Positions 4,951 to 44,333 of a DNA stretch of 64,000 bases are shown in pieces (position 1 is the stretch's first letter; every line of letters begins with the position of its first letter). The notes beneath the pieces were generated by a model. That model searched no databases and was not told the DNA's origin. It was given only the letters and a program-made list of their open reading frames with translations. The translations under genes were made by a program, and so were the position numbers. This DNA is from a virus. The stretch is taken from positions 1 through 64,000 of the IMG/VR virus record IMGVR_UViG_3300046167_000873; one strand, given 5' to 3'.

Positions 4951-5525
4951 TTAATATTCTCTTTCATTTCTTGTACGAGTTTATATGGATGTCTATGTTG
5001 CATAGTCATTTGTGGTATTTCAATGTGTTGAGGAAGCTCCATTATATGCCAGATCATATCGTGTACTTGTTCCCATGTACAACCTGGAATTCCATCTTCA
5101 TCTTCATTATCTTTAGTCTCAAAATCGTGCCCTGTTATGTATCCCAGATTGAGCGTGGTGATACGGCATTTAACCTTTGAGTTGTATGTTAGGCTGTTTG
5201 ACATATGATCCAGAGCGGCTTTCTGAGCGCCGTAGATATGATCTTGTGAGAGGTTTGGGAATGCAGCTCTTGAAGAAATATTAATAATGAGTTTTTCTGG
5301 ATTGTCTGCCCATGCATTGGCCAGTTTTTCCAGTATAAGCACTTGATCAATATCACGGTGAGCCTGATTAATGAATACCTCCCATGGGTAATCATCATAA
5401 TCTTTCATCCTTAGTACATCTGCAATTCGTAAATAATCTGGATACATTCCACTAAATGTATAACCAATCCCGCCACAGCCTGTAATACCTATACTGCCAG
5501 ATCTATTATATTGCTCAGGAACCAT
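4938..5525 (-). CDS. short-chain dehydrogenase/reductase-like protein
   Basis: ITGCGGIG, IINISS, YGAQK (YxxxK). Confidence 0.75.
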   Translation of the reverse strand: MVPEQYNRSGSIGITGCGGIGYTFSGMYPDYLRIADVLRMKDYDDYPWEVFINQAHRDIDQVLILEKLANAWADNPEKLIINISSRAAFPNLSQDHIYGAQKAALDHMSNSLTYNSKVKCRITTLNLGYITGHDFETKDNEDEDGIPGCTWEQVHDMIWHIMELPQHIEIPQMTMQHRHPYKLVQEMKENIKCNR

Positions 5526-6393
5526 TTAATATCTCCATTGATTTTCTTCCAAATAAATTACCTTTGACCGAACACTTGTTGCATGGTGATTTAGATCGGT
5601 CGCCACTTCCTAAACGATTTCTGATTTTTTTCATTTCTTTAGATAACCATACATCTTTCACTGATTGTTGAATAAGATTTCCAACAACAATTTCTTTGCC
5701 CCAATCGTTAGAGCAGAATAAAACATCGCCATTCCAATCTACGAACATTTTGTAGAATGGATAATAACAAGGCGTACCTTCTAGTTCTTTAACAGTGGCT
5801 TCGTCATCGCCTAACCAATCAATGTTTCCCCCACGGTTGTTTAGATGCAAACCATAATCGTCTTGAGAATAATGTGCTCTATAACTCCACTTAGATGCAT
5901 CAACGTCTTGCATAACAGTATCAAAGTGGAGTTGTTGATGTAAACCATCATATAAGTTTATGTACAAAAAATCAAGTCCATAGTTGTATAGTCTTTCAAC
6001 AACGCTCGGATCTAACCGATCACCATTCGTATTACATTCTAAAGTTGCTTTTGGTAAACATATTCTAAAGGCCCTGATAATCTCATCAAATTGAGGATTC
6101 AATAAGTTTTCACTATAACCAGAAAATGAGATTTTACCACTATAATCTATTTCTGCTAGATTTTCTGCAATATACATTGCACCCATCACAGTCATATTTA
6201 AATTACGGTTAGGATATACTTTAGGATCATGTCTTGGGCAGAATACACATGTGCGGTTACACAACTCTGTCGTATTAATTTCAACAGTAAGAATAGAGCT
6301 AAGTGGATCTGTTAAATCCACTTTTTCGAAATGCTCTGACTCTTGCTGTTTCCTATAGTCTAAGAAAGAATCTTTATCCTGCAATGAAGTCAT
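5515..6393 (-). CDS. radical SAM protein with SPASM/twitch domain
   Basis: CNRTCVFC (CxxxCxxC); C-terminal PCYYP..DWNGDV.FC..GNL..PCNKC. Confidence 0.9.
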   Translation of the reverse strand: MTSLQDKDSFLDYRKQQESEHFEKVDLTDPLSSILTVEINTTELCNRTCVFCPRHDPKVYPNRNLNMTVMGAMYIAENLAEIDYSGKISFSGYSENLLNPQFDEIIRAFRICLPKATLECNTNGDRLDPSVVERLYNYGLDFLYINLYDGLHQQLHFDTVMQDVDASKWSYRAHYSQDDYGLHLNNRGGNIDWLGDDEATVKELEGTPCYYPFYKMFVDWNGDVLFCSNDWGKEIVVGNLIQQSVKDVWLSKEMKKIRNRLGSGDRSKSPCNKCSVKGNLFGRKSMEILNGS

Positions 6394-7489: not shown

Positions 7490-8380
7490 TTAAACGCTAA
7501 GGGCCGGATACGTTTGTGAAATTAGTTCAGACAAGAATTTGTCGCTTTCTTTGTTTTTCTCTTGTTCCTCAAACCAACCTAGTTTTGAAAGAGTAATCGG
7601 AAGATTAATAATAATCGCATGGGTTCCATAGGCCTCACATAAAAGTTGGTACCATGCAGGTTCACTAAATTGTAATCGTTTTGTATCGTATAAGTTCATT
7701 AGTATATTATAGTCAATCATATCTGCCCGATGCATAAGAAGAAAATCACGGCATAAGCTACTATCTACTGAATTGCCTTGGTGGCTAAATTCCATAATAG
7801 GTTGTTTTGAATATATTTGGCTACCTGTTCTTGGATAACGATGGAAACCAATTGGCCTTCTTTCTCTATAGCAAAGTTCTGCTAATTCATAAACCCATCT
7901 TTTTAAGAATCCTTCATCAAGCAAAGTATCATATCGCATACGAATTACAACATCATGTTCTGGCTTGACAAAATCACGACAAGTCATTGCGTGAATAATA
8001 AGCTGTTTTTGTTGTTTACGGAACCACGTCCTTTTTGTGACGTTGTCTTCCATTTGTCGCATTATTTCATTTTCAGTATTTAAATTATCCTCGGCGTATT
8101 CTTTAAGTTTTTTAATTGCACTAGGATCTTTTTTTCGAAGTTTGCGCAGCTGCTCAATATCATGAAGTATTTGTTTTTTACCGGGATTATATGTCATTGG
8201 AGGGGTTTTATATCTTCGGTTTGTAAAAGCATTATACGGCTGATCTTCCCATGTCGTGAATGCATAATCAGCATCAGGTAAAATGCTTTTCATTGTCATA
8301 ATGTTTTCTTCGACAGAAGTCAATGTTTCAAATCCATCATTGTTTGGTATTGCACCAGAAACACATACTATTATTTTCAT
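7490..8380 (-). CDS. putative glycosyltransferase-like protein (GT-A/WavE-like)
   Basis: N-terminal KIIVCVSG strand, FTTWED, DVVIRMRYD motif; next to a nucleotidyltransferase. Confidence 0.45.
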   Translation of the reverse strand: MKIIVCVSGAIPNNDGFETLTSVEENIMTMKSILPDADYAFTTWEDQPYNAFTNRRYKTPPMTYNPGKKQILHDIEQLRKLRKKDPSAIKKLKEYAEDNLNTENEIMRQMEDNVTKRTWFRKQQKQLIIHAMTCRDFVKPEHDVVIRMRYDTLLDEGFLKRWVYELAELCYRERRPIGFHRYPRTGSQIYSKQPIMEFSHQGNSVDSSLCRDFLLMHRADMIDYNILMNLYDTKRLQFSEPAWYQLLCEAYGTHAIIINLPITLSKLGWFEEQEKNKESDKFLSELISQTYPALSV

Positions 8381-8850
8381 GTTGCACCTGCGTTAGATTT
8401 CAATCTTAGATAAACCTCTGCGTCATCAGTACATACACCGCTAAACTTACTTGTATCAAAATAGTGGTTTGGCATAACGCTAATCGATTTTCTTGTGTTA
8501 AATGGTACATCACAACCAGGATATGCCCATATCCAACCCTTTGATGTGATAGTATATTGATCTGTCTCATGCCAAAAGTAGTGTAAATCTAGTACGTCAT
8601 TCTGAAGAGCACACATTGCTTCAATATTCTTGCAGTGTAACCACAAAAAGTTTGATCTGAGTATTAGCCACTGCTTAGAAACATTGTGTTGTGCCGTATC
8701 ATGGCCTAGATACCATTCACCATCAATAAATCTCACATCCACTTCTACGTTTAATGAATGCTCAGCAATGCAGCGATCGATTTGCGTTGGGTGGTTTTCA
8801 AGTGGTGGATCAGAACCTTCTGTGTTACCGCGGTGTGAAATAATCAGCAT
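8377..8850 (-). CDS. PLC-like/GDPD-like phosphodiesterase
   Basis: IISHRGN, EN, VEVDVR, LGHD, LHCKN. Confidence 0.75.
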   Translation of the reverse strand: MLIISHRGNTEGSDPPLENHPTQIDRCIAEHSLNVEVDVRFIDGEWYLGHDTAQHNVSKQWLILRSNFLWLHCKNIEAMCALQNDVLDLHYFWHETDQYTITSKGWIWAYPGCDVPFNTRKSISVMPNHYFDTSKFSGVCTDDAEVYLRLKSNAGAT

Positions 8851-9617
8851 ATACTTTCCTCATAATTAAATAACTCTTCTGGAGTCCCAATAAGATGAAC
8901 ATTTCCATTCTGCTCGTTTAAATCATATGCTACAAACTTATGACCATCATTGAGAGCTTCAGTATATACCGGGCACATGTAATACTCACCGTTAACTTTC
9001 GTTTCTGGCTTTTTAATCATTTGATTGGCGTATCGATAAAAGTCAGATCCGTGCTTCCAATAATATAATCCTGCAGTTGCATTATCACTAATCAGCTGCT
9101 TCTCTGCAACTTCAGTAATTAAACCATTCTCTATTTTTGCGTATGATGCACCTGGATTATCTGATTTGAACGTGATCATACCACCACTCAATCCTGGCCG
9201 AGATACATACTGTAAAAAATGTTCTGCATTCCAATCTTCCATAAGTTGATCACAGTTAACAAATAATACTGGCCAATCACTATTGATCAAGTGACCTGAT
9301 AGCAAAGCAGTACATGCTGCACCATCGGTCACTTGATCAATATCAACAATATCATAATGTGAACAACTTTTTTCAAATATGTTGTCATATTCTCTTTTAT
9401 AACGGTGATAATTTCGAGTTATAAAAACATAGTGTCCATCAATTGATAAGCTTTCAATAACAGCCCGAAGCATTATATCTTGTTCTTTATATATTGATTT
9501 AAATTCAATCAATGGCTTTGGAAAATCAAACCTTCTTTCTCCGCCTTCGTCTTTGTAATTAGAAAACCTACTACCTCTACCGGCCATAGGTATTACAACG
9601 TTCATTCTCAAACTCAT
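8844..9617 (-). CDS. sugar-phosphate nucleotidyltransferase (NTP_transferase family)
   Basis: NVVIPMAGRGSRF, PKPLI, NCDQ, EVAEK, NGEYY, IGTPEEL. Confidence 0.85.
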   Translation of the reverse strand: MSLRMNVVIPMAGRGSRFSNYKDEGGERRFDFPKPLIEFKSIYKEQDIMLRAVIESLSIDGHYVFITRNYHRYKREYDNIFEKSCSHYDIVDIDQVTDGAACTALLSGHLINSDWPVLFVNCDQLMEDWNAEHFLQYVSRPGLSGGMITFKSDNPGASYAKIENGLITEVAEKQLISDNATAGLYYWKHGSDFYRYANQMIKKPETKVNGEYYMCPVYTEALNDGHKFVAYDLNEQNGNVHLIGTPEELFNYEESIC

Positions 9618-9620
9618 ACT

Positions 9621-10448
9621 TTATCCTGTTAAATTGTGCCCTTGCGTTGATATATCTTTTAGTATTTCTTTTTCTGTCATCATTTTAAATTCTGGCTTTC
9701 TTTGTGTCAACCCAATATTACCAGAGATGATCATCACGATGGCCAAGGGATCAAATACACATACAAGTAATATAATAATCCACCTAACAGCAACGTCAAA
9801 ATACTCAGCTGCATTATCCTTTCCATAAATTAATTCCGCAATATACTTGAGTGGACCCACTTCAACTTCAAGCTCAAGTCGTTCTCTCTGCAAGGGACTG
9901 AGACTCGATTGGAGTCGCTCGATATTAGCATATGCATTATTGATGTTTTCGTTTTGAGCTGCACGTTCCTCGCCTTGCGCTTGCCGTGTGGCGATCGCAC
10001 CGTCCTTGCCTCTGATCCTATCATAATCGATGAGGGTTTGAACTGTGGCGTCCAATTGCGAGAGAACCGTTTCTGCATCCTTAATAGAACGCTGCTGGTT
10101 TCCAATTTGTCTTTGAAGGTTTTCGATCTGAAGCTCATTTGTTCCACCTGTTGATATAGAATGCTCAAGATGTGCCTTACTAAGATAACCGAAGATACCA
10201 AGAGAAGTAATAAACACCAGCACAATGATAGATAATACCATGTATGTGCGAATAAGTACAGGCGCAATTGACCACGACCTATAAATCCACGATGCTGCTA
10301 CAACCTTTGATAACTCTAATGTCGCTGCCATTACAACAACTGACCAAAATGCACCTGCAAAAATTGTTGCAAGTCCAACGATTGAAAAATACCCACCCAC
10401 ACATGTCAACATCAATCCCATCATCAACACAAGATGGTGTACGTTCAT
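9621..10448 (-). CDS. membrane protein with coiled coil
   Basis: Three N-terminal TM segments, coiled coil, C-terminal TM (VFDPLA). Confidence 0.7.
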   Translation of the reverse strand: MNVHHLVLMMGLMLTCVGGYFSIVGLATIFAGAFWSVVVMAATLELSKVVAASWIYRSWSIAPVLIRTYMVLSIIVLVFITSLGIFGYLSKAHLEHSISTGGTNELQIENLQRQIGNQQRSIKDAETVLSQLDATVQTLIDYDRIRGKDGAIATRQAQGEERAAQNENINNAYANIERLQSSLSPLQRERLELEVEVGPLKYIAELIYGKDNAAEYFDVAVRWIIILLVCVFDPLAIVMIISGNIGLTQRKPEFKMMTEKEILKDISTQGHNLTG

Positions 10449-10757
10449 TTAATCCTCCAGGATTTGGTTTAACTTAAGTTTAAATGCGTTAATCTTATTT
10501 ACACGGTCTTCACCTGGCCAATAGATATATTCTTTTTCTGGCTCAGTTGAAAGATTGTTGAGTAGTGGTATAACAGCTGCATAGATTGATTGTGCCTTTT
10601 GTCGCCACTGCTCAGATTGTTCCATCCACTCGTTTGCTGTCGATTCTGTTTGTGTAAGCTCTGATCTAACTTCTTGCACTTCAGACAATTCATCTGCGTC
10701 AACAAGAGAAAATCCAAAATCGAAGTTCTGTAAGTCTAGCGTTGATTTTTCTGTCAT
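10449..10757 (-). CDS. hypothetical protein
   Basis: ORF coupled to the gp43 stop. Confidence 0.65.
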   Translation of the reverse strand: MTEKSTLDLQNFDFGFSLVDADELSEVQEVRSELTQTESTANEWMEQSEQWRQKAQSIYAAVIPLLNNLSTEPEKEYIYWPGEDRVNKINAFKLKLNQILED

Positions 10758-13277
10758 CCGAAAAAGTCCTCAATTGAATTTGTTTTTTCTACGTCCCATC
10801 CAACGGCATCAAGTATTGTTTCCATTGGCTTAAGATATCCCTTGTAGAATTGTGTTTCGAAGTCTAAGAATTCGTCTAGAGCAAATTCTTCTGGCAATCC
10901 AGCAGGTGAAGCTATAACTGTTTGGAAGATTGGGTTTGCCTTAACAAGATAGCAAAACTTTATCTTTTCACCTGACTTAATTTCTTCGTATTTCTTTTCT
11001 AAGTTATATTTATTCAACAAATGATTGTAGATTAAACTACCTTTGACTTGTATAGGCGTTCCTTTTTTGTAGATGTTTGTTTTGTCAGCGTATGTACCAG
11101 GATAAATTTTACCTTGTGCATTCTTTTCCCACTTAACAAAGTTACAACTCCTTGGAAATGCGATGTCTTCATAACTCAATGTTCTAAATTCAGTACGGAA
11201 GTTTGAGATATATTTCTGGACGGTTCCCTCATCTGTCGTCATAATGAGCTTAAGTGTCTTTTTAATTTCATCACGGCATACAGCAGGAGTCGATGAACGT
11301 ATTGCTTCGATGCCCATCATCTTCATCTTAGGATCTGTATATCGAACACCTTCTTCATCATAAACGTGCATGATATATCTTTTCTTTGCAGTCCATATAG
11401 CCTTATCGGCAATGTTTTCTCGCTTCATAAACATTTTTTGTGATCTTGCATTGGTGTAATTAGCAAGATCTTTATATGCGCTGTCAATAAACGGCTCAAT
11501 CTTCGACTTCGCAGCGAAATCTAAAAATTCAATAGGATCATCTGGATTAACTTTCTTTACAAGTTTATCAAAGCATACATAAATCGAATCAGTATCTCCT
11601 GCTATAACATAATCTTTGTTCTTTGTGCTGAGCAGTTTGTTGAGATAGTCGTTCATCTTATTCTCAATCCAACGAATGGATAGTTGACCGGCCATTGTAA
11701 TTGCTTCAGCATTCTCGTTATCGAACCACCGAAAATATTGATTTGCTAACGCACCATATGCAGAGTTCAATTGAATCTTTTTACTGTGTTGTAGGTTATG
11801 ATAACGAGAGATGTCAACCTCAAGTTGTTTGGTTGGATTTTTCTGATATTCTCTCTTTGCATCTATCATCTTATTCTTGTATTCTACACGGTCATTATAC
11901 ATTTTTTCCATAATTGCAGGCAAAAATCCTTGTTCTATAGTATCATAGACTTGACCATTAGGCGTGAGTGTGCAGTGTGAGCTCCTTAATTGATCAAGAT
12001 TAACTTCTTGTTTCAACATTGTATCAACACTTACGTTATTAATATGTACGTCACGCTTGCATTCAGGTGATATGTTGTATTGCATAATGAGATGAGGATA
12101 CAGTGAGTTGAGGTCAAATGACATTACCCATTCATGCATACCTACGTGTGGGTCTTTTACGTGGCCACCTACAATACTGCCTGTATTTTGATTACTCTTT
12201 CTGTCATACGTCACCACTTTGTTTGTATCCATTAAATAATTGTGGATGATGACGTCCCATAGTAACACGCTAGCTAAAGTATCTTGGTAGTTTACTTTTG
12301 CATCATATGCAATTGAAAATATTTGGTCGATATAACCGAGTTGCTTCTCTAGTTCTACAATAAGCATAACGTCATCAATGTTGTATTCAATAAACTTTTG
12401 ATGATTGTTCTTGTATAACTCATGTAGATTACCATACTCTGAATAATCTACTTTCTTTCTACCGATCTCTATTTCAGCGATGTAGTCTAGGCGATAAGAT
12501 TCTCTAGGTTGCAGTCTAAACTTTTTGTATATCTTTAGGTAGTCAAGATCTGCTACACCAAGTATAGAATATGTCTGCGACTGCTTATCGCTGCCTGCTC
12601 GATACACCATCTTTTCTTTAACGATGCCCCATGGGCTTAAACGTTTATGTGAATCTTTAGAGCATACCTTTTGAATTCTGTTCACTAAGTACGGTATATC
12701 AAAAAATTCTGAGTTCCACCCCTGTGACAGCATCGGGATCCATTCTTTCCCAAGACTGCAAAAACTTATTGAGCAGATGAGTCTCGTCTTTACACTTAAT
12801 ATAGTAAACGTCTTTGTATTTTTCAAGATTAGGTTTCTTAAAATCACGTATTCCAAGAGCAACACATAGACCGCCTTTGATAATTGTAATTGCGGTAATT
12901 TCTTTTTCTGCTTTCTCAGGTTCTGGAAAACCATCGTCAGATTTTACCTCGATGTCTATGTAGACGACATTAATCTTTGATGTGTCAGGCTGGAAATTTT
13001 TGTATGTGTCGTAAATATAAAGATAAGCCCAGCGAGATGATCCGTAGATATCAAACCCGTGCCATTGCTCACTCCATTGACGGGCTTCCCAAACATTATC
13101 AAAGTCTACGCGCTTTACATTTGACCCATGGATATCTGTGATTCCTGTAGGCTTTGCAGATGCAGCGAATAAATATGGTTTGTAAGCAATCTTTTTTTGG
13201 AAACGACCGTCGGCGTCAATACCACGAACATACAAGTAATTGCCTTGCTGGATAACACTGGTGTAAAATGAATTCAT
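10754..13277 (-). CDS. gp43: family B DNA polymerase (T4 gp43-like); one apparent +1 frameshift at ~12720
   Basis: Exo I DIEV in 12699..13277; GWNSEFFDIPY, SFDLNSLYP, KIQLNSAYG, AGDTDS in 10754..12934; the two join if one G is removed from ACAGGGGTGG. Confidence 0.95.
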
Positions 13278-34387: not shown

Positions 34388-34789
34388 CTAGACATTTTCA
34401 AAAAGACCGTGGTTGCCTGAATGATCAGGCGCCTTCCATCCACTTGGCTTTACAAGATCAGGCAGACCAAGTGGGTTTGGACGGCTTTCTTTTTGTCCTA
34501 CTTGTTTTGCCATATTAGCTTCTGCTACACGATCCCAAGCTTCATATGCATCTACATTAAAAGCATCTAATGTACCAATAGCAACAACACACAGATCAAT
34601 AAGACCATCAACGATTTCTTCAGGATCACGTGCATCAACTGCAAGAGCAGTTTCATTGAGTTCTTCATAAAGAAACTTAAGACGAAAGTCCAAATACTCC
34701 TTTAACTTGTCTGGGTTATTCTTTACCCATTCACCAACACCGTATTGCTTGTGCATACGTTCAATATCATAAACCCAGTCATTCGACAT
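34388..34789 (-). CDS. MazG-like nucleoside triphosphate pyrophosphohydrolase
   Basis: EELNE...EEIVDGLID acidic motif, ANMAK, RPNPLGLPDLVKP.GW. Confidence 0.85.
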   Translation of the reverse strand: MSNDWVYDIERMHKQYGVGEWVKNNPDKLKEYLDFRLKFLYEELNETALAVDARDPEEIVDGLIDLCVVAIGTLDAFNVDAYEAWDRVAEANMAKQVGQKESRPNPLGLPDLVKPSGWKAPDHSGNHGLFENV

Positions 34790-35319
34790 TATACTGCTCC
34801 TTTAAAAGCTCTTAAAAATTTCTTCTTTAAATTATCTCTACGCTTCCGTGCTTTTTTGAGGTTAATCTCAGAAACACGTTGCGTAAAATAGATACCATCT
34901 AGATGATCAATCTCGTGTTGTATTACTCGTGATACCATACCGGTAAATGTATGTGCCTTTTGTTCACCTTGTGGCGTATGCCACCGTACTCGGCAAGATT
35001 TTGGTCTTCGTACCTTGGCTAGCATAAACTCATCACTCAAGCAACCTTCAGTTTTTACACTATAATCATCACTATAAAATACTATGCGAGGATTGTACAT
35101 AGCTAGCTTGCCTTCATCTTGAGTATTGATGATGCACAACCTATGGTTAAGTCCAACTTGATTGGCTGCTATACCTAGTCCGCCCTTTTCTACCATAAAG
35201 TTAGATAGTTCATTTACTAGCTCTATAGCATCACATGGAGGATTCTCAAAATCAAATGGTTCGATTTTATCATGCAGATATGTAGGATCTATTTTCATTT
35301 TATTCACTGTCAAAATCAA
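34789..35319 (-). CDS. def: peptide deformylase
   Basis: GLGIAANQVG, EGCLS, QHEIDHLDG. Confidence 0.95.
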   Translation of the reverse strand: MILTVNKMKIDPTYLHDKIEPFDFENPPCDAIELVNELSNFMVEKGGLGIAANQVGLNHRLCIINTQDEGKLAMYNPRIVFYSDDYSVKTEGCLSDEFMLAKVRRPKSCRVRWHTPQGEQKAHTFTGMVSRVIQHEIDHLDGIYFTQRVSEINLKKARKRRDNLKKKFLRAFKGAV

Positions 35320-35502: not shown

Positions 35503-37203
35503 TTAAGATGCAATATGTGAAAAGTTCTTAATCTTCTCAAACTTTATATTGCTATGAAATTTATCGTAAAGCTGATCACCTTTATGGCTAATCACAAAGA
35601 CATTACTATCAGATGTAAGCGATGTAATAAGCTTGAGGAATTCATCTGTTCCTGTATTATCAAGTGAGCTGTCAAATACTTCATCCATGATCAATAGGTT
35701 TGTTGTAATTGAATTGCGTAGCTTAGCAACTGCTCTCCACGTAAATAGTAGTGATAAATCAATTCTCATTTTCTCACCTTCAGAAAACGAATCGTATGTA
35801 AATTCATCACGGTGTCTTGATTTAATAACTTCATTGAAGTTTTCATCAAGTTCGAACTGCACAAAAAACTCCATGGCAGCGAGGTACTTATTCATGAGCT
35901 TATTGATCACTGGTATGTATTGCTTTACAATCTTTGCTTTAATTCCAGTGTCCTTGAGTAGACTCAGTCCAATATCATTGATCTCTTTCTGTTCTAAAAG
36001 TACTTTATAGTTGGCTTGCTTATCTTTAACAAAAGCTTCAAGCTCAACAATATCGTCATCAATCGAATCAGGAACAATCTCTTTCTGCTCTTTCATCAGC
36101 TTAGTTACGTCTTGCTTAATAGATGAAAGCAAAGCAGTTGATACTGATTGTTGATTGGTTACTTTTGCTATCTTACCTTTAACTTCGTTCCATTCATCAC
36201 GTACTTTGTCAATCTTGTCAAATTGTGCTGTAAGTTTTTCATAAGCATCATTGAGTTCTGTTTGCTTACTTACAGATTCCGCTATCTTTTTCTTCTTCAT
36301 AGCTTCGTTAATGGTTTGCTTACAGGTAGGACAGTCATCGTGTTTCTCATAGAACTTATTGTCTTCGACTGCCTGTTTAAGTTCGAACTCCATATTGGCT
36401 TTAATCTTGTTTAGCTTTGTTTCTTTATTCTTGGCAGTCTCAATATCAGGTAGTTTGCTTTCTAGTTTCTCGATATCTTTATCGTATGCTCGAATAGTTT
36501 TAACCGTATCCTCATATTTTTTCTTATGGATCTGTATCTCTTTTTCTTTATCTTCTTTGTTCTTCAAAACCATCGAAGTAATCTTTGCTGCATGTTGGCG
36601 TGTGAGTTCAATCTTCTGTTCACACTTTTCAATCTCGTGCTTGTGTTCAGTCAATTGTGCCTTAACATCGTTTGCTCTTTCTTTTAGGATTGTATTCATC
36701 TTAGTAAAGATTTCTATATCAAGAAGATCTTCTATGACACTCCTGCGATCACCTGGCTTCATTTGCATGAATGGCATATAGTTTGCAGAGCCAATCACAA
36801 CAATTTGCGTGAAGGACTTGTGGTTGAGCTTGAGGATAGTCTTCTCAAGCATTTCTTGGTATTCCTTTATGCTGGCATTTTGATCTATCAAAGTATCATC
36901 CGCATATATTTCAAACACGGCTGGCTTGATGCCTCTACGAACTTTATAGTGTTTGCCTTTGGTCGTAAATTCTATTTCGACAGCACAATCTTTATTTGTA
37001 ATTGAATTAACGAGTTGCGGCTTATTAATATTGCGATAAGGCTTACCATACAATGCAAACATGATTGCATCAAGTATTGTAGATTTACCCGCACCGTTTT
37101 CACCTACAATAAGAGTAGATGCTGAACGATTTAATTGGAGTTCAGTCCATTGATTACCGGTCGATAAGAAATTTTGCCAACGCACTTTCTGAAAGTTTAT
37201 GAT
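35503..37203 (-). CDS. gp46: recombination endonuclease ATPase subunit (SbcC/Rad50-like)
   Basis: NFLSTGN, GENGAGKST, CPTC hook, FSEGEK, LIMDEVFDSSLD; start probably at ATC 37203 (GTG 37185 in the track). Confidence 0.95.
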   Translation of the reverse strand: MINFQKVRWQNFLSTGNQWTELQLNRSASTLIVGENGAGKSTILDAIMFALYGKPYRNINKPQLVNSITNKDCAVEIEFTTKGKHYKVRRGIKPAVFEIYADDTLIDQNASIKEYQEMLEKTILKLNHKSFTQIVVIGSANYMPFMQMKPGDRRSVIEDLLDIEIFTKMNTILKERANDVKAQLTEHKHEIEKCEQKIELTRQHAAKITSMVLKNKEDKEKEIQIHKKKYEDTVKTIRAYDKDIEKLESKLPDIETAKNKETKLNKIKANMEFELKQAVEDNKFYEKHDDCPTCKQTINEAMKKKKIAESVSKQTELNDAYEKLTAQFDKIDKVRDEWNEVKGKIAKVTNQQSVSTALLSSIKQDVTKLMKEQKEIVPDSIDDDIVELEAFVKDKQANYKVLLEQKEINDIGLSLLKDTGIKAKIVKQYIPVINKLMNKYLAAMEFFVQFELDENFNEVIKSRHRDEFTYDSFSEGEKMRIDLSLLFTWRAVAKLRNSITTNLLIMDEVFDSSLDNTGTDEFLKLITSLTSDSNVFVISHKGDQLYDKFHSNIKFEKIKNFSHIAS

Positions 37204-37616
37204 AACGTATTTCCTCTAAGTAAAAGCTCACCATTATACTGTGTATTCACTTGAACAGAACCCTCATTCTGTGATACTGCCCACCAAATAGCCCAAACAA
37301 GTTGTACCTGATCAACCTCTTCATATTTAGTCTGTCTAATAAAAAGGTGCTTACCTTCTTCGTCTTCGTTTTGGTATGTTATGAATCCACATTTATTTGG
37401 CTTTAAAGATTCAGGAAGTCCTTCATCTTCTAACCAAGAACATCTAAATGATCTGCACGTAATTGGTCTATCTGGATAAATTGTACAACCTGATTCATAT
37501 TTTGAACACACAGGCATATTAGATGATGCTATAACATCTTCACCAGTCATTGACTTATCATTAAACCATAAAATACCGGTGCAGCATGCATAGCAATCAC
37601 CGCATTCCCTACTCAT
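37197..37616 (-). CDS. YkgJ-family CxxCxxCC (putative Zn/Fe-S) protein
   Basis: CGDCYACC, C.IYPDRP..CR.F.C. Confidence 0.75.
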   Translation of the reverse strand: MSRECGDCYACCTGILWFNDKSMTGEDVIASSNMPVCSKYESGCTIYPDRPITCRSFRCSWLEDEGLPESLKPNKCGFITYQNEDEEGKHLFIRQTKYEEVDQVQLVWAIWWAVSQNEGSVQVNTQYNGELLLRGNTLS

Positions 37617-38718
37617 TAGATATTGCCTCAGAATATAAGTCGTAAAATAAATCGTGCACTGGCTTCGGTGCTGGAAGATTCAAACTATCAATGTACTTGT
37701 TCACGATTGTAGCTGTGTCTTCTGCTTCATTAATAATGTCGTCTGCGTTTTCCATATCAAGACGTAGATTATCTTCTACGATTTGAACGTGACATGGATT
37801 AGCTTGATTGATGCTATCGACAAATAAATCGAAGAGGTATGGATTGTCTTTATTCTTTACGACAATCTTTATGAAGGTATCTTTGAGGTGGCCATGATCT
37901 TCTTTTATAGATGCATGGATATTATCTTCGTTGCTATCATCATAAAATACTTTGTGGAACATAGAGTAAGGATTCTTAATGTATTCTAACTCTCTTGTTT
38001 TAGTATCAAAAATATGAAACCCACGATCATCATCATAATCAGACCATGTCATTTCATATGGTGCGCCTAGATAATGTATATTGTCTTTCGAGGACTTATG
38101 GTGGAAGTGACCAGACATCACCATATCAAACTTGCCAAACGTCGCGTGGCTCATTCCTGAGTCTATCTTTGTACCTTTATACATTTCAAAACCACTGAGC
38201 TCAAGGTGACCCATACATACGTCAGCATTGCTGTTTTTGATTGTATGCATTGCATAATCATAATTCGAACTATTGATCCAAGGCATAAACATTATTTTAC
38301 AGCCATCAAAATCAAAGTCATTAGATGGGTGTGCGTGTACCCACATCTCTGATGTATTGAGTATGTAATCGTTTTTTGGACAGGGCCATTTATCCTTCAT
38401 CCATCCAAGGAGTAGATACGGTGCGTTTACGGCGTTAGTGTTCTTAAAGTATGTATCATGATTACCAACGATACAATGGAGATTGATACCCTTACCATAA
38501 ATTGGACCAAAAAAATAATCATTACAACGCTTAAGACTATCGAAATTGATGTACTTACGTCGATCAAAAATGTCTCCCAATTCAATGATATCTTTGATAC
38601 CACGCTCTTCCAAGGTTGGGAAAAATACTTCGCTATAAAACTTTTCATAATAATTATGAAACTGTGTACTGTCATTTCGAACCCCGAAATGCTGGTCTGT
38701 AATTAAAGCGATCTTCAT
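37609..38718 (-). CDS. gp47: recombination endonuclease nuclease subunit (SbcD/Mre11-like)
   Basis: ITDQHFG, LGDIFDRRK, VGNHD, SGHFH. Confidence 0.96.
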   Translation of the reverse strand: MKIALITDQHFGVRNDSTQFHNYYEKFYSEVFFPTLEERGIKDIIELGDIFDRRKYINFDSLKRCNDYFFGPIYGKGINLHCIVGNHDTYFKNTNAVNAPYLLLGWMKDKWPCPKNDYILNTSEMWVHAHPSNDFDFDGCKIMFMPWINSSNYDYAMHTIKNSNADVCMGHLELSGFEMYKGTKIDSGMSHATFGKFDMVMSGHFHHKSSKDNIHYLGAPYEMTWSDYDDDRGFHIFDTKTRELEYIKNPYSMFHKVFYDDSNEDNIHASIKEDHGHLKDTFIKIVVKNKDNPYLFDLFVDSINQANPCHVQIVEDNLRLDMENADDIINEAEDTATIVNKYIDSLNLPAPKPVHDLFYDLYSEAISNE

Positions 38719-39845
38719 TTACTTATCCTTTCGATCTCTTGACGTATTTCCATAGCGCCTGATTTCGTACCAAATTTATGACCATGTACTGCACCACCAG
38801 CATTAGCAAGATAATCATTACCAATTCTATTCGTAATCGGTTCGATGAGTCCTGCATGCATACCACAACTAAGTATTGGTATTGTATTACATTCTCGTAG
38901 CGCGTGTACACAGTTCATTGTTTCAGAATCGTCGTGGTTACTATAACCACCAAGCATTCCTACTTGAATAGAATCAACACCGCAGAGTGTTGCGAGACGA
39001 CACATGACTGGCCATGATATACTATATCGGTGTGATTTATCGCACATGACTTTTGAGCCACTGCTTTGATAATGCATAAACAGGGGTAAATCCATACGAC
39101 GGATACTATGGTATGCACCTAATCCGCTAAAGACATTAACATGCACACCACGACCACCTAATTCGCTCACCATCAAAGCTCTCTCACTAATCACATGAGG
39201 ATCACCATTTATGGTATGGCAAAACATTATATTAGAATTAATTCGTTCTAAATAATTTGCGACTGCATCGACACGTTCATATAAAGGAGCTATTGCTGGG
39301 TTAGACATGATTTCATCTTCTTTGATAAAATCAACACCACCATCAACCAGCATTGATACCATGTCGATCAACGTCTTTGTAGTAATCCCAATCTTTGGTT
39401 TGATAATACTACCAAATAACGGTTTATCATATTGCCCAGTTTTTTCTCTTAGACCAGATAACCCAATCTTTGGCTTATAAAAAAGCTTTTCAATTCTATC
39501 AGGGAAGGATATATCAATGAGTCGGCATTTTTCAACAATTTCAATGTCAGTATGACCGCCCATCAATTGACAAAGCAAATGGCTAATGCCGTCGTTTTTC
39601 CAATCTGTATTACAAACAGGATATGCAATACAAATAACGTCGTCACGATTCAAGTCCACAATTTTACATGCGAACTTCTCTATCATTTCCTGCGTTTCCC
39701 AGTCATTACGAATATCAGGATTACCGATACTCTGACCAATTGCTATTGCGTAAGCTGCTTCTTCAATTGTTGTCTTAGATTCGATTTCATAGCAAGCAAG
39801 GACATAGTCATTCCTTAACTCTTCCATCTTCCGATATAAGTTCAT
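38715..39845 (-). CDS. RuBisCO-like protein (form IV RLP)
   Basis: IIKPKIG, GGVDFIKEDE (RuBisCO signature), LSCG, GGAVHGH; carboxylase-specific His/Arg and loop-6 Lys are replaced. Confidence 0.92.
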   Translation of the reverse strand: MNLYRKMEELRNDYVLACYEIESKTTIEEAAYAIAIGQSIGNPDIRNDWETQEMIEKFACKIVDLNRDDVICIAYPVCNTDWKNDGISHLLCQLMGGHTDIEIVEKCRLIDISFPDRIEKLFYKPKIGLSGLREKTGQYDKPLFGSIIKPKIGITTKTLIDMVSMLVDGGVDFIKEDEIMSNPAIAPLYERVDAVANYLERINSNIMFCHTINGDPHVISERALMVSELGGRGVHVNVFSGLGAYHSIRRMDLPLFMHYQSSGSKVMCDKSHRYSISWPVMCRLATLCGVDSIQVGMLGGYSNHDDSETMNCVHALRECNTIPILSCGMHAGLIEPITNRIGNDYLANAGGAVHGHKFGTKSGAMEIRQEIERISK

Positions 39846-40233
39846 CTAATTGTTCTCCACGGTATTCTGTTATCTTATCTCCTGGGATACTAGGAGCTTT
39901 CACGCATACTATCACACAATCTTCTAAAAATACAGGTTTAACGATAGATTTTTTAGGAACAACAAATACAGATTCAGGTTCAATAATCGTACCATAAATT
40001 GACATCTTGCCTGTCACGAGTACATTGTATTCATCATGAGATCGATGGTAGTGTGCTGGCCAATCTTCCCCCTTGCTGTGTTTAAAAACACCAACTTCAA
40101 ATTTAGAAGTCTTTAAAACGGATGGTTCGAAATTACCGATAAACCAACCTCTTGTAAATTCAGAAAGTGGTATTACCCTCATTTGTCGGTTACCAAATTT
40201 TAAACCGAAAATTCTTTTAATCAACTTAATCAT
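39808..40233 (-). CDS. cupin-domain protein
   Basis: GWFIGNFEP, AHYH...EY cupin motif; start at 40233 or 40182. Confidence 0.75.
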   Translation of the reverse strand: MIKLIKRIFGLKFGNRQMRVIPLSEFTRGWFIGNFEPSVLKTSKFEVGVFKHSKGEDWPAHYHRSHDEYNVLVTGKMSIYGTIIEPESVFVVPKKSIVKPVFLEDCVIVCVKAPSIPGDKITEYRGEQLDELISEDGRVKE

Positions 40234-42001
40234 TTTTACGTACCACATAATTGCCCATGAATAAAATATCAATATCCATTTTCATAAACGCATTTAATGC
40301 ATCAGTAGGAGTTTCAACTATAGGTTCGCCATTATCATTGAATGAAGTATTAAGTACAATCGGCACACCAGTTTTCTCATTAACAGCACGAAGCAGTTTT
40401 GTTACTGTATGATTTTGTTCTTCGTTAACTGTTTGAATACGGCAGCTACGATCAAGATGTGAGATTGCTGGTATCTCAGAAACTTTATCTTCTTTTACTG
40501 TAAACGCATAAAGCATATACGGAGATTCAAAATCTTCTTCAAAGTAATCTGTAAGATACTCATCAAGAATAATACCGGCAAACGGCCTCCACTCTTCTCT
40601 ATGCTTCACCCTTTGATTAAGTATATCTTTATTTTCGGCTAATTTTGGGCTCATTAAAATAGACCGTGAACCAAGTGCTCTTGGACCAAACTCAGATCTA
40701 CCTTGAAACCATCCTACTATTTTATTATCGTTAATACATTCTGCTGCGATGTTATCAATATCAAATGGTCTATGTTCATAAAACAAACTATTTTCTGTTG
40801 ATCTATTAAATTCTTTGATCGCCTCTTCTATTTCATTACTATTATAATGCTTACCTAATAATGCAATATTATCAGGCATAGTAGGATGCTTACAACCTTG
40901 GCTAACAAGACCTAGAAACGCAGCACCTAAATGTAATCCTGTATCTGTAGTATACGGCGGAATGTGTACTCCTTTCATCATCGGCGTCTGTTTTAGCCAA
41001 GTGTTTGCTTTTACATTTAAAAATATACCACCTGAAAAACATACGTTATCTTCTAAGTATCCTTCCTTATAATATAAGGTCATCATTTTCTGAAGTGCGT
41101 CTTCGTGGTTACGCTGTAGAACGTATGCTTTTTCTGCATGTGACAGAGTAGTGCATTCTTCTGATGACCAATGCGGGTGATGCTCTCCAATGTATGGTCT
41201 GCCGTTATAACCAATCTCTTCATTTGTTATGGTGTAAATATATTTTTTTTCAAAATCTGGGTCTTTACCTAAATCTGAACCGTATGCACAAAGTCCCATA
41301 ATTTTTCCGTGCATAGAATCCATTTCACCACGGTAATGTTTTCCTGTATTATGCTCTATATCAATAATACTGCAAAAAATGCTTTCTGAACCTATTGCCC
41401 AATGTGAGCCTAAACAATTTGTATGTGGCAAATCGTGGAATATTCTAAACATGGATTTGTTTTTATTAAAATATCCTAACGCACCTCTTTCTGTAATAGA
41501 GGTTGGAAAAACAAATCTGCCTTCATCGTCTCGGGCTACGTGTGACGGAATACTCTCGCCTGAACCATCATTTGTAATAAACGCACCTTCTTCATACGGG
41601 CTTGTATAGATAGACACTGCTGCGTGGCAACTATGATGGGGATAAAATTCTATTTTTGCTTTTGGAAATAATCCCTCAAGCCGTTTTTGTAATTGATGTT
41701 CAAACCTTGATATTTTAAAAAGAGGTGATCCTGGAGTAGCGACACAAACCATATCGATCATATCTACAGTTAGTTTACCTGCTTCAAGGCAATACATAAT
41801 ACTTTGTTGCGGCTCTGATCCATCATATTTTACGCGAGAAAGCCTTTCTTCTTGGATACTACAGATGTGTTCTCCATCTATAAACAGGCTCGCTCCAGCA
41901 TCATGCACCCATTCTACCAGATGTTGTTCGATATCATTTTTAATATGGTCTTCATTTCTAGGATTCCAACCCCACGCACCATACACGCCGAGAATATTCA
42001 T
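40226..42001 (-). CDS. carbamoyltransferase (NodU/CmcH family)
   Basis: HDAGA, EERLSRVK, HH.CHA, DGSGE, GKIMGL, SGG..LNV, EFGPRALGSRSI, VKHRE.WRPFA, LNTSFN. Confidence 0.95.
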   Translation of the reverse strand: MNILGVYGAWGWNPRNEDHIKNDIEQHLVEWVHDAGASLFIDGEHICSIQEERLSRVKYDGSEPQQSIMYCLEAGKLTVDMIDMVCVATPGSPLFKISRFEHQLQKRLEGLFPKAKIEFYPHHSCHAAVSIYTSPYEEGAFITNDGSGESIPSHVARDDEGRFVFPTSITERGALGYFNKNKSMFRIFHDLPHTNCLGSHWAIGSESIFCSIIDIEHNTGKHYRGEMDSMHGKIMGLCAYGSDLGKDPDFEKKYIYTITNEEIGYNGRPYIGEHHPHWSSEECTTLSHAEKAYVLQRNHEDALQKMMTLYYKEGYLEDNVCFSGGIFLNVKANTWLKQTPMMKGVHIPPYTTDTGLHLGAAFLGLVSQGCKHPTMPDNIALLGKHYNSNEIEEAIKEFNRSTENSLFYEHRPFDIDNIAAECINDNKIVGWFQGRSEFGPRALGSRSILMSPKLAENKDILNQRVKHREEWRPFAGIILDEYLTDYFEEDFESPYMLYAFTVKEDKVSEIPAISHLDRSCRIQTVNEEQNHTVTKLLRAVNEKTGVPIVLNTSFNDNGEPIVETPTDALNAFMKMDIDILFMGNYVVRKND

Positions 42002-42516
42002 TCTTCAGTAAACCTCTCAACGCCTTTAAGTGTTTTTTTGTTGTTGTCTGTTTTTTTCTTGGATTCAAATTTATCAATAATAGGTTTCATTTTTTCATTT
42101 TGAATATTAAAGTCTTTGTATCCATTGCTACTTTCAGCTTCAAAAAAGTCAGCGTCGATAACAAGTTCTTCGAGAGATTTATATTTGACGTAGGTTTGCT
42201 TTTGCTCCTTTTCTATGCGCCGCAAAAAGGCAAACCAAATAATTCGAGTAAAATATCCAAACGGGTTTTTAGATTTTTCTGGATCAAAACTATGAACTGC
42301 AACAATACAGTTTTCTAGTGAATCGTTGATCATTTCATCTTTGTAAGTATAACCGACAAAATTACCACGGTTGGCAGTACGGGTGGCTATAAGGTAAAAA
42401 GCTTCACCAATCTTTTCTGGTATTCTTGGCACTTCACCGTCAAGTGCTTCATTACATGATTTACGATAATCGACTAGCAGTTGATAAAATTCTTTGTTGT
42501 CTATATAGTTTGCCAT
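41998..42516 (-). CDS. gp55: late-transcription sigma factor
   Basis: YIDNKEF, NF.GYTYKDEMI.D, NPFGYFTRIIWFAFLRRI.KE. Confidence 0.96.
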   Translation of the reverse strand: MANYIDNKEFYQLLVDYRKSCNEALDGEVPRIPEKIGEAFYLIATRTANRGNFVGYTYKDEMINDSLENCIVAVHSFDPEKSKNPFGYFTRIIWFAFLRRIEKEQKQTYVKYKSLEELVIDADFFEAESSNGYKDFNIQNEKMKPIIDKFESKKKTDNNKKTLKGVERFTEE

Positions 42517-42866
42517 CAGTGTAATTCCTTTTGACTGGTTTTTTTGGCAAACAAGTTTTCAACATCATAATCTCGATTAAAATATTTGTTTGCATAGGAT
42601 TTATAATACTCAATTATTTCTGGTTGTAAATCTTTATGTATATGTAGGATATCTTCATTGTAAAAAAGTGCATCAGCACCAGTCGTTAAGGGTTGGTACT
42701 TAGTAAACTCCAAACCAGTTGAAACCTTTCCTTCAGTCTCATATTCAGAATCATATGTTTTAACCTTTAGTCGCAATGCATCTAAAATATCAATAGACGT
42801 ATCCGAAGATATCTCTAGCTTACCTAACACATTGGTTTCATTTTTTAAAACAACGAGTACAATCAT
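42516..42866 (-). CDS. conserved hypothetical protein (uvsW-gp55 gap)
   Basis: Position; beta-rich N-terminus. Confidence 0.6.
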   Translation of the reverse strand: MIVLVVLKNETNVLGKLEISSDTSIDILDALRLKVKTYDSEYETEGKVSTGLEFTKYQPLTTGADALFYNEDILHIHKDLQPEIIEYYKSYANKYFNRDYDVENLFAKKTSQKELH

Positions 42867-44333
42867 TTACACATCCTTTATTTCTACTTTTCTTACAGTA
42901 TATTCGTGTTGCTCAAGATCATACTGCTTCACACGTTCCATCAAATGATTTAGTGTGTAATTTGTTTTTGATCCCCAACTTAAATCATCAGCAATGTCAT
43001 ATAATGTTGCACTATCTTTTGTGCTAGATGTTCTTAGTCCACGGCCAATAGATTGAAGATTCCGTATCTTTGTTTTAAAAGGTGATGCGTAAATAATATT
43101 ATGCAAGTTCTTAATGTTGATACCAGTAGAGAAAGTGCCGTAGCTAGCTATAACAATGGCATCACTTTCATTTTCAACAATTGCTCTAATTTCATTACGT
43201 GTTTCACCTTTAACCTTACCATGCACGAAATAAACTTTCCTATCTTCGCTCACCATTTTTTTAATACTTTCATGCAATATTTTACCATGCTTCTCAACAT
43301 ATTGAAACAAAAGAAGGGTATTACCATTCAAAGATAACGTCAAGTCCCGTATGAATTTATTTCTTATTTCATGAGAACAAAGAAAATCCATCTCTTCTTG
43401 ATACTTATTTTTACTATTTTTCTTTCGTGTTAACTCGGAATATTTTAACGTTATAATTTTTATTTGTAGTTTTGCAAGATAGTTCATATCCTGTAGTTCG
43501 CGCGTGGTGATCACTTTATTAACAGGCCCAAATAGACCTTCAAGAACCAATTGATGCGTCTGAGAATCATCTAGGGAGCCTGTGAAGCCATATCTGTATG
43601 GTGTGTTAACAAGTTTTGTCATTAACGTAGTACATGATTTAGCTTTAAATAAATGGGCTTCATCACCAATAACCACACTAAACTTATCAAACCATTCTTT
43701 CTTTAACTTATAGACAGATTGCCATGTGGTAATAACAATTGGTTTATCGGTTTCTTTAGATTGCCCAGTATATATTTTATGACAATACTTTTCTGATTTA
43801 AAACCGTAATCTTCAAAATCAGAATATATCTGGTGTACAAGTGTTACTGTAGGAACAATGAGAAGTGTTGGCTTAAGATGCCAACGCATAATCATATAAA
43901 TAATAAATGACTTACCGGAACCAGTGGGAGAAAGGAATAGAGAACGACTATTACATATAGCGTCCTTAAAAGCCTCAATCTGATATTCTCTTTGGTCGAA
44001 GTTAGGAGGAAGACTAACGAGCTGTTCATCAATAAACTTTTTAGCTGCTTCAATTGTAAAATCAATTGGTCTACTATCATAAGTGTAACTGACATGGTAG
44101 CCTCTTTCTTCTGCGAATTGCTCTATATATTTATTGAGACCAGAATAGAGAAATCCAGTAGCAGTATTTAAAAGACGTATTTTCCCATCCCACATTCGAT
44201 TTCGGTAACTAGGCATGAATTCTGCACCAGGTACTTTGAATGTAAAGTGTTCACTGAGTTGATTAAAGACGCCTCTATCATCGATTTGAATTTGGTTATA
44301 AACTTCATCAACTTTGTTGATTTTAATTTCCAT
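42867..44333 (-). CDS. uvsW: SF2 helicase UvsW
   Basis: WDGKIRL, SPTGSGKS, GDEAH, STGINI, QSIGRGLR. Confidence 0.97.
   Translation of the reverse strand: MEIKINKVDEVYNQIQIDDRGVFNQLSEHFTFKVPGAEFMPSYRNRMWDGKIRLLNTATGFLYSGLNKYIEQFAEERGYHVSYTYDSRPIDFTIEAAKKFIDEQLVSLPPNFDQREYQIEAFKDAICNSRSLFLSPTGSGKSFIIYMIMRWHLKPTLLIVPTVTLVHQIYSDFEDYGFKSEKYCHKIYTGQSKETDKPIVITTWQSVYKLKKEWFDKFSVVIGDEAHLFKAKSCTTLMTKLVNTPYRYGFTGSLDDSQTHQLVLEGLFGPVNKVITTRELQDMNYLAKLQIKIITLKYSELTRKKNSKNKYQEEMDFLCSHEIRNKFIRDLTLSLNGNTLLLFQYVEKHGKILHESIKKMVSEDRKVYFVHGKVKGETRNEIRAIVENESDAIVIASYGTFSTGINIKNLHNIIYASPFKTKIRNLQSIGRGLRTSSTKDSATLYDIADDLSWGSKTNYTLNHLMERVKQYDLEQHEYTVRKVEIKDV

Follow-up and report, generated by a model that had tools for sequence, protein, structure and literature searches.

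RuBisCO-like proteins (RLPs) are a textbook case of an ancient fold that has been re-used, and the few RLP reactions known to us are all catabolic or salvage. The 2,3-diketo-5-methylthiopentyl-1-phosphate enolase MtnW/YkrW (form IV-YkrW) is the model for a RuBisCO fold restricted to enolization, and OiaX-type RLPs (3-oxo-isoapionate-4-phosphate decarboxylases of D-apiose catabolism) act on keto-sugar-acid phosphates; MtnW and the first step of RuBisCO itself indicate that the retained core suffices for Mg-assisted enolization of a keto-phosphate. Here we analyze an RLP of 376 amino acids (aa) encoded at positions 38715..39845 (minus strand) of the window, i.e., the whole 64,000-nucleotide stretch that forms the first 64 kb of the 150,920-bp IMG/VR virus record IMGVR_UViG_3300046167_000873, which is estimated to be 83% complete. 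An earlier note on this DNA, made from the letters alone, had described the gene as a phage-encoded, form IV RLP of an uncharacterized clade, repurposed by a virus for sugar chemistry. Unassigned branches of RuBisCO homologs were already seen in the GOS paper, and Jaffe, Castelle, Dupont & Banfield 2019 (Mol Biol Evol; bioRxiv 10.1101/386292, PMC6389311) report about 90 phage 'form IV-like' RLPs, some of them on Myoviridae contigs, that cluster with Beckwithbacteria outside the other RLP groups and whose function was left open. We equate this 'IV-like' clade with that of the window RLP on indirect grounds, namely that the two fit one description and that our own tree includes a Beckwithbacteria member. 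The clade is therefore known yet uncharacterized; that is, the word "uncharacterized" in the earlier note stands, but any suggestion that the clade was undiscovered does not.

Membership in the RuBisCO large-subunit superfamily is clear from several lines of evidence. The open reading frame (ORF) starts with ATG, with a GGAG ribosome-binding site 9 nt upstream, and its product combines an N-terminal alpha/beta domain (PF02788 at 5e-7, 30.4 bits vs. a cut-off of 20.7) with a C-terminal TIM barrel (PF00016 at 2.1e-33, 116.3 bits vs. a cut-off of 30.1). An AlphaFold2 model built on 42 relatives (pLDDT 92.9, pTM 0.90) superposes on form III RuBisCOs (8dht, 3a12) at TM 0.90 in Foldseek. All of the motifs that had been picked out earlier were found in the ORF (IIKPKIG, GGVDFIKEDE, FMHYQSSG, VDSIQVGMLGGYS, ILSCGMH and ANAGGAVHGH), and the residue calls made from them by eye (K175/K177, K201-D203-E204, HxHR, His327 and Lys334) proved correct when we transferred spinach numbering through a HMMER alignment to the form III structure 8dht and MAFFT alignments with true RuBisCOs. 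In this numbering, the RLP retains K175, K177, K201, D203, E204, S379, G381, G403 and G404, and carries the replacements E60G, T65N, N123G, H294Q, R295S, H327Q, K334Y and G380C. The family as a whole behaves in the same way: 75 columns are invariant among 42 members (including K149/K151, K175-E-D-E178, Q260, Y301 and S326-C-G328), the metal/carbamate triad, K175/K177 and the P1 phosphate glycines are kept throughout, and the CO2-addition and P2-site residues give way to invariant Q294 and Y334. By these alignments, the residues for CO2 addition and for binding the second phosphate are gone from the RLP. With its 376 aa, the protein falls short of the family norm (396-397 aa), since it is without a 6-residue loop of the N-domain and 14-21 residues of the C-terminal tail, and the truncated form is also kept in one close relative (P0001).

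That the gene might nonetheless encode a true CO2-fixing or AMP-pathway RuBisCO has in its favor only that form III gives the best matches in NCBIfam and by fold. The score against the form III equivalog model TIGR03326, however, is 165.6 bits vs. a cut-off of 497, the positions E60, N123, K175, K177, K201, D203, E204, H294, R295, H327 and K334 read G, G, K, K, K, D, E, Q, S, Q and Y, so that E60, N123, H294, R295, H327 and K334 are all replaced, and no e2b2 or AMP phosphorylase gene is found among the annotated RLP neighbors. We thus regard a true RuBisCO as practically out of the question. The earlier claim of a non-carboxylating RuBisCO-like protein is borne out by the replaced CO2-addition residues and the low TIGR03326 score, and we are highly confident that the gene is functional and that its product belongs to the RuBisCO superfamily without being a carboxylase.

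Among 1.84 billion cluster representatives searched, we found 1,200 relatives, and relatives occur on 175 IMG/VR contigs. A tblastn search with the RLP against 50,697 GenBank phage records gave no match, and no PHROG family was matched either; hence, the RLP is absent from the deposited or isolated phages in that copy of GenBank while being common in IMG/VR. Two trees, one made by FastTree (192 rows) and one by IQ-TREE under LG+C20 (61 rows), both placed the window RLP in one clade with 99% support. Every member of this clade, which comprises 35 rows, has G60, N65, G123, K175, K177, K201, D203, E204, Q294 and Y334. The corresponding signature, GNGKKKDEQ...Y, is shared by the 81 viral members without exception and by the cellular ones, and the window RLP carries it as well. 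The clade lies apart from the group of the verified MtnW (P0210, 652 bits), from the OiaX-like group, and from the groups with the full RuBisCO motif. The scores of the window RLP tell the same story, being far below the NCBIfam equivalog cut-offs for MtnW (144.7 vs. 409 and 112.1 vs. 513.6 bits) and OiaX (121.5 vs. 700 bits). That is, the phylogeny proposed as a check in the earlier note separates the window RLP from the characterized MtnW clade by a branch with 99% support.

The cellular members of the clade come from SAR11 (including the complete chromosome NZ_CP159823), four Legionella/Tatlockia genomes, Verrucomicrobia, Planctomycetes, Elusimicrobia, Turneriella, Beckwithbacteria (metagenome-assembled genome L098) and other Patescibacteria/CPR (candidate phyla radiation), and, among DPANN archaea, from Woesearchaeota, Nanoarchaeia and Micrarchaeota. 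Repurposing by a virus, in the sense of a viral invention, is contradicted by this distribution, given that the same clade is found in SAR11, Legionella, Verrucomicrobia, CPR and DPANN genomes. As a separate observation, the RLP of one viral contig (L054) groups with two SAR11 genome RLPs (L091 and L093) with 100% support, which could represent phage-host exchange or phage DNA inside SAR11 single-cell assemblies.

A few proteins with unusual architectures are also worth recording. P0178 (583 aa) has a TIR_2 domain fused N-terminally to a RuBisCO-like protein (Pfam 3e-13 and 1e-45), which looks unusual; TIR fusions often mark defense or signaling proteins. P0155 (726 aa) and P0165 (742 aa) both join an IF-2B/e2b2-type isomerase to a full form III-like RuBisCO and so combine two steps of the AMP/nucleoside pathway in a single polypeptide.

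Inside the 'IV-like' clade, the window RLP falls into a nine-row subclade (99% support) that derives entirely from metagenome contigs, namely six viral ones from IMG/VR, the window, and those of its close relatives P0001 and P0002, the latter two with T4-like phage genes. The order of change leading to this subclade was H327 to Q first, an intermediate state that is seen in L042, followed by K295 to S, and the states at positions 295/327 among the 81 viral members are S/Q in 42, K/Q in nine and K/H in 30. Among the sampled sequences, the paired K295S and H327Q changes thus appear to mark a subclade seen only on phage contigs. R295 and H327 hold the distal phosphate in RuBisCO, so that binding of a second anionic group may persist in the ancestral K/H state; the S/Q state of the window RLP would be without that positive charge.

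Gene context provides the link to sugar chemistry that the earlier note had proposed. We called ORFs on 80 viral loci plus the window (81 loci) and clustered the proteins. In 60 of the 81 loci, the RLP is immediately preceded, on its own strand, by a member of one and the same cluster, which mixes cupins (~107 aa) and nucleotidyltransferases (~240 aa) joined via fused forms. Within four genes of the RLP, a sugar-1-phosphate nucleotidyltransferase is found in 64, a 148-aa GDPD-like protein in 60 and a cupin in 48 of these viral loci. The cellular loci (RLPs with at least 35% identity) are similar, with a nucleotidyltransferase at most five genes from the RLP in 40 out of 43, and true-RuBisCO loci in the same scan gave only stray nucleotidyltransferase matches. 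One protein (P0122, 667 aa; 46% identical to the window RLP) is a fusion of RLP and NTP_transferase. Other frequent neighbors are FkbM- and TylF-type methyltransferases, SDR epimerases/dehydratases and glycosyltransferases. In Legionella, the RLP-nucleotidyltransferase pair is preceded by a divergently oriented gene for a LicD-family phosphotransferase (1e-42; L126 positions 4636-5487 in Legionella nautarum; also in L127-L129), and a LicD homolog was found only in these four Legionella/Tatlockia loci. The Legionella/Tatlockia carriers, which include L. nautarum and L. drozanskii, are cultured, meaning that the clade could be studied genetically there. Our literature search found nothing relevant on an RLP with a nucleotidyltransferase or a cupin, or on 'IV-like' RLPs with phage after 2019.

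The neighborhood survey asked for in the earlier note therefore upheld the sugar link, but the strongest clue within the window turned out to be located elsewhere, in a nucleotidyltransferase/GDPD-like pair at 8.4-9.6 kb. No nucleotidyltransferase is encoded near the window RLP, and no fusion is present; the nearest homolog is the sugar-1-phosphate nucleotidyltransferase 29 kb away (8844..9617, minus strand; phrog_3980), which matches the nucleotidyltransferase of RLP locus L002 at E 2.7e-37 and has 71 matches to that cluster. The profile of this family is closest to PDB 4evw, an uncharacterized NDP-sugar pyrophosphorylase (7e-35), followed by ManC, RmlA and GlmU. It overlaps by seven bases a gene for a 157-aa, mini GDPD/PLC-like phosphodiesterase (8377..8850, minus strand) that is a homolog of the 148-aa RLP-locus gene, with 62 matches to cluster 2. 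The GDPD-like family has H6, R7, E18, N19, E36, D38 and H50 invariant; its AlphaFold2 model (pLDDT 94) had no Foldseek match at E<=0.001, with GDPD folds appearing only at TM 0.5-0.6, so the GDPD assignment rests mainly on the motif HRG..EN..ExD..GHD and a profile match to the GDPD 7e0v at 2e-4. Next downstream, after a 1-base gap, lies the ORF of a putative, GT-A-like glycosyltransferase of 296 aa (7490..8380, minus strand); it has no Pfam, PHROG or NCBIfam match, and its structure neighbors in the Atlas are WavE/GT2/GT25 at TM ~0.5-0.6, which gives a low-confidence assignment. These three genes all sit between the DNA polymerase gene gp43 and UvsX. The four core genes have thus been co-retained, with the cupin-RLP pair 29 kb from the pair formed by the nucleotidyltransferase and the GDPD-like protein, and this arrangement suggests two sub-modules and a minimal set for reconstitution. 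A scan of the whole 151-kb record turned up neither an SDR dehydratase nor any other common island family, with the sole exception of a distant FkbM-like gene near 142 kb. Accordingly, the window represents a natural dissection of the cassette and narrows the minimal gene set that is worth reconstituting. The gene directly upstream of the nucleotidyltransferase (9621-10448, minus strand) encodes 275 aa, with membrane segments at both termini and a coiled coil in the middle; this protein has a weak DUF4407 match and a 38%-identical homolog in RLP locus L005.

The cupin directly upstream of the window RLP, on the same strand, is small, about 124 aa when read from the homologous start (39808..40182, minus strand; the ORF is open to 40272), this start being the ATG at 40182 and not the TTG at 40272. 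It matches phrog_24762 at 7e-23, shares 60% identity with the cupins that precede other phage RLPs, and has the motif G-x5-HxH-x4-E-x6-G, in which H44, H46 and E51 are invariant; its profile matches to PDB cupins are weak. Cupin presence does not track the S295/Q327, intermediate and K295/H327 types (26/42, 7/9 and 15/30, respectively), and a complex prediction of two RLP copies with the cupin scored 0.00, which counts neither for nor against. An RLP beside a metal-type cupin with an HxH...E motif recalls MtnW and MtnD, and the NCBIfam PRK09549 MtnW model is among the better-scoring matches of the RLP. Hence, one alternative is a methionine-salvage pair, in which the RLP is a DK-MTP-1-P enolase like MtnW and the cupin an acireductone dioxygenase (ARD) like MtnD, recycling methylthioadenosine during infection. 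However, in addition to the low equivalog scores given above, the verified MtnW representative falls in a different clade with 100% support, and position N123 is a lysine in the MtnW representatives vs. an invariant glycine (G97) in the RLP family. Further, the cupins are 100-124 aa long, lack an invariant second-motif histidine and have no ARD match in Pfam, and the conserved partners are the nucleotidyltransferase and the GDPD-like protein, not MtnK, MtnA, MtnB or MtnX. We consider methionine salvage a poor explanation, with little probability of being correct.

The reading that we favor, at slightly better than an even chance as a whole and somewhat less than that for the pathway in its details, is Mg-dependent enolization/isomerization of a keto-sugar phosphate by the RLP, which would thereby feed a nucleotide-activated glycan precursor. 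Specifically, the RLP would bind a 2-keto (or neighboring keto) sugar with one phosphate or diphosphate, or an NDP-keto-sugar, abstract the alpha proton through a Mg2+-stabilized enediolate as in the first step of RuBisCO, and release an isomerized or epimerized sugar phosphate. The metal-type cupin, which is translationally coupled to the RLP, probably performs the adjacent isomerization step, and the nucleotidyltransferase 29 kb away would handle the product or the substrate of the RLP. The GDPD-like phosphodiesterase and the GT-A-like protein could then pass the activated sugar to a glycan or another acceptor, the upstream carbamoyltransferase may decorate the same sugar, and the final acceptor could be a host envelope glycan, virion proteins or DNA. 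Several considerations count against this proposal. We know of no clade member with a known substrate, product or activity, and since the nucleotidyltransferase is of the RmlA/ManC type and its nearest structure (4evw) is uncharacterized, the RLP could act either before or after the nucleotidyltransferase. The cupin is absent from ~40% of the viral and many of the cellular loci and is thus not essential to the job of the RLP; the GT-A assignment is weak. In the window itself, the RLP and the nucleotidyltransferase are not co-located, with the link being provided by co-retention and by other genomes, and the absences of island genes are provisional because the record is 83% complete.

A broader proposal for the clade is possible, in our view, but less probable than this pathway. 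It holds that the clade performs a reaction new to the RuBisCO fold (biosynthetic enolization, isomerization or C-C rearrangement) and makes an unusual sugar phosphate, which is nucleotide-activated and then linked, through phosphodiester or glycosidic bonds, to surface glycans of SAR11, Legionella, DPANN/CPR and phages; the S295/Q327 subclade would have shifted to a substrate without the second anionic group.

The genomic setting of the RLP bears on whether the gene belongs to the phage at all. The gene order is uvsY-uvsW-gp55-carbamoyltransferase-cupin-RLP-gp47-gp46-peptide deformylase, and the flanks are the late sigma factor gp55 (41998..42516, minus strand; phrog_234 at 7.7e-52) and the SbcD-like nuclease subunit gp47 (37609..38718, minus strand; phrog_100 at 2.8e-98), with gp46 next to gp47 assigned by phrog_77. 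The insertion in the gp55-gp47 block that had been described is therefore right as to its flanks and needs one correction, namely that the carbamoyltransferase shares the gap. The overlaps reported with gp47 and the cupin are real: the RLP stop and the ATG of gp47 share the sequence ATGA, and the cupin frame reaches 38 nt into the RLP. The order gp55-carbamoyltransferase-cupin-RLP-gp47 is repeated in five contigs from separate samples (L082-L086), with RLPs that are 96% and 80% identical to that of the window. Contigs of four other public sequencing runs cover the stretch, others bridge each gene junction, and one 13,977-nt contig from another run spans positions 37000-43000 with nine differences; the runs containing the stretch are seawater, estuary and ballast-water metagenomes. 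GC content is uniform. A chimeric assembly, which the earlier note had named as a possible refutation, is excluded by these spanning and bridging contigs together with the recurrent synteny, and the same synteny in independent assemblies sustains the view that this is a true phage gene and not host contamination.

The RLP is also under strong constraint. Its dN/dS is 0.08 in comparisons with two relatives, at dS 0.19 and dS 2.0, and when the block (uvsW, uvsY, gp55, gp46, gp47, carbamoyltransferase, cupin and two small ORFs) was compared with that of L084, the RLP was the best-conserved protein, with 80% identity vs. 36-71% for the other genes. In other words, this phage lineage keeps the RLP under stronger constraint than its own replication genes. 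One might still argue for a drifting or non-catalytic remnant, host contamination or a chimera with no role in the phage, given that the RLP is shorter than its relatives and that no RNA run is among the listed sequencing runs that hold the RLP sequence (which says nothing on expression). Against this stand the low dN/dS over dS 0.19-2.0, the intact metal and phosphate ligands, the identical synteny in five contigs, the long spanning contig and the uniform GC content, and we judge such a scenario to be very improbable.

Another alternative keeps the same enzymology but has the sugar placed on phage DNA, as a base hypermodification, instead of on a glycan. T4-like phages glycosylate their DNA, and both gene pairs of the window lie among replication/recombination genes (gp43-uvsX and gp55-gp47). 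On the other hand, the cellular homologs (SAR11, Legionella and DPANN) lie among glycan-type genes (LicD, cytidylyltransferase and SDR epimerases), most phage RLPs are in islands of methyltransferases, glycosyltransferases and epimerases, and the uvsW-gp55-gp47 gap carries unrelated cargo in cyanophage S-SSM7. DNA hypermodification is, consequently, unlikely in our assessment, although it deserves more weight than methionine salvage does.

The remaining gene of the insertion is a NodU/CmcH-type O-carbamoyltransferase directly upstream of the cupin (40226..42001, minus strand; Carbam_trans_C at 3e-68, phrog_1601 at 9e-118), which has the same position in L082-L086. We considered it as a partner of the RLP family and concluded that it is probably not one: only one weak homolog was found near other RLP loci, and a carbamoyltransferase is present in the uvsW-gp55 region of S-SSM7 without an RLP, as well as elsewhere in AG-345-L05. 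Its link to the RLP is uncertain for these reasons.

Regarding the phage itself, the nearest major capsid proteins (~62% identical) are those of T4-like phages of Stenotrophomonas, Methylophilales (Melnitz) and Sinorhizobium, and no psbA was found in the phage record; we rejected a cyanophage origin on these grounds, and a marine heterotroph is a more likely host than a cyanobacterium or any other candidate. Comparison of window positions 35503-38718 with L082 positions 9128-12286 showed gp46 and gp47 to be only 69% identical and the cupin 90%, vs. 94-99% for the 139-aa ORF between gp46 and gp47 and for the genes from the carbamoyltransferase to uvsY (the cupin excepted). The two phages are thus mosaic by their gene identities, which suggests recent recombination that swapped the nuclease genes. 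Downstream of gp46, in the region 34388-35319 (minus strand), there is a peptide deformylase (4e-35), followed by an ORF that matches a MazG/PRA-PH-like gene and has the same position in L082 and L084; both are typical auxiliary genes of marine T4-like phages. Finally, the stretch 4938-6393 (minus strand), between a gp41-like DnaB helicase and UvsX, contains an ORF for a 292-aa radical SAM/SPASM protein along with a short, SDR-like one of 195 aa.

In comparison with known systems, the window RLP shares with MtnW/YkrW the fold, the carbamyl-Lys/Asp/Glu residues and the P1 site, as well as the loss of the P2 site and of K334, but differs in its separate clade, its scores under the cut-offs, glycine instead of lysine at position 123, and its gene partners. 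OiaX-like representatives are also RLPs, yet they keep E60, N123, H294, R295, H327 and K334, form their own clade and are catabolic, as opposed to the biosynthetic context of the window RLP clade. CDP-alditol/ketose activation for phosphodiester-linked glycan decorations, such as TarI/TarJ (CDP-ribitol), AbpA/AbpB (CDP-arabinitol) and LicC/LicD, offers a parallel of another kind, i.e., a nucleotidyltransferase that acts on a pentose or ketose phosphate followed by a phospho-transferase, to be compared with the LicD-family gene in the Legionella loci. The nucleotidyltransferase of the window, however, is closest to 4evw and of the RmlA/ManC type rather than the IspD/TarI type, and we are aware of no RLP in such pathways. 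SAR11 are the ocean's most numerous bacteria, and with SAR11, cultured Legionella and 175 viral contigs among its carriers and about 1,400 metagenomic homologs, the clade is abundant; its tie to a sugar-activating enzyme suggests an anabolic role in building cell-surface sugars that are contested by phages and their hosts. The closest match of all is provided by the 'IV-like' RLPs of Jaffe 2019 (PMC6389311), which, like ours, are divergent RLPs on IMG/VR myovirus contigs that group with Beckwithbacteria and have catalytic residues unlike those of known form IV, whereas the linkage to nucleotidyltransferase, cupin and GDPD genes and the wide cellular distribution are not reported in the accessible part of that paper. 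What is new here is that the cassette is split, that the active site is of the S295/Q327 type, that the C-terminus is truncated and that constraint is strong; otherwise, the window RLP is a somewhat derived member of a published clade.

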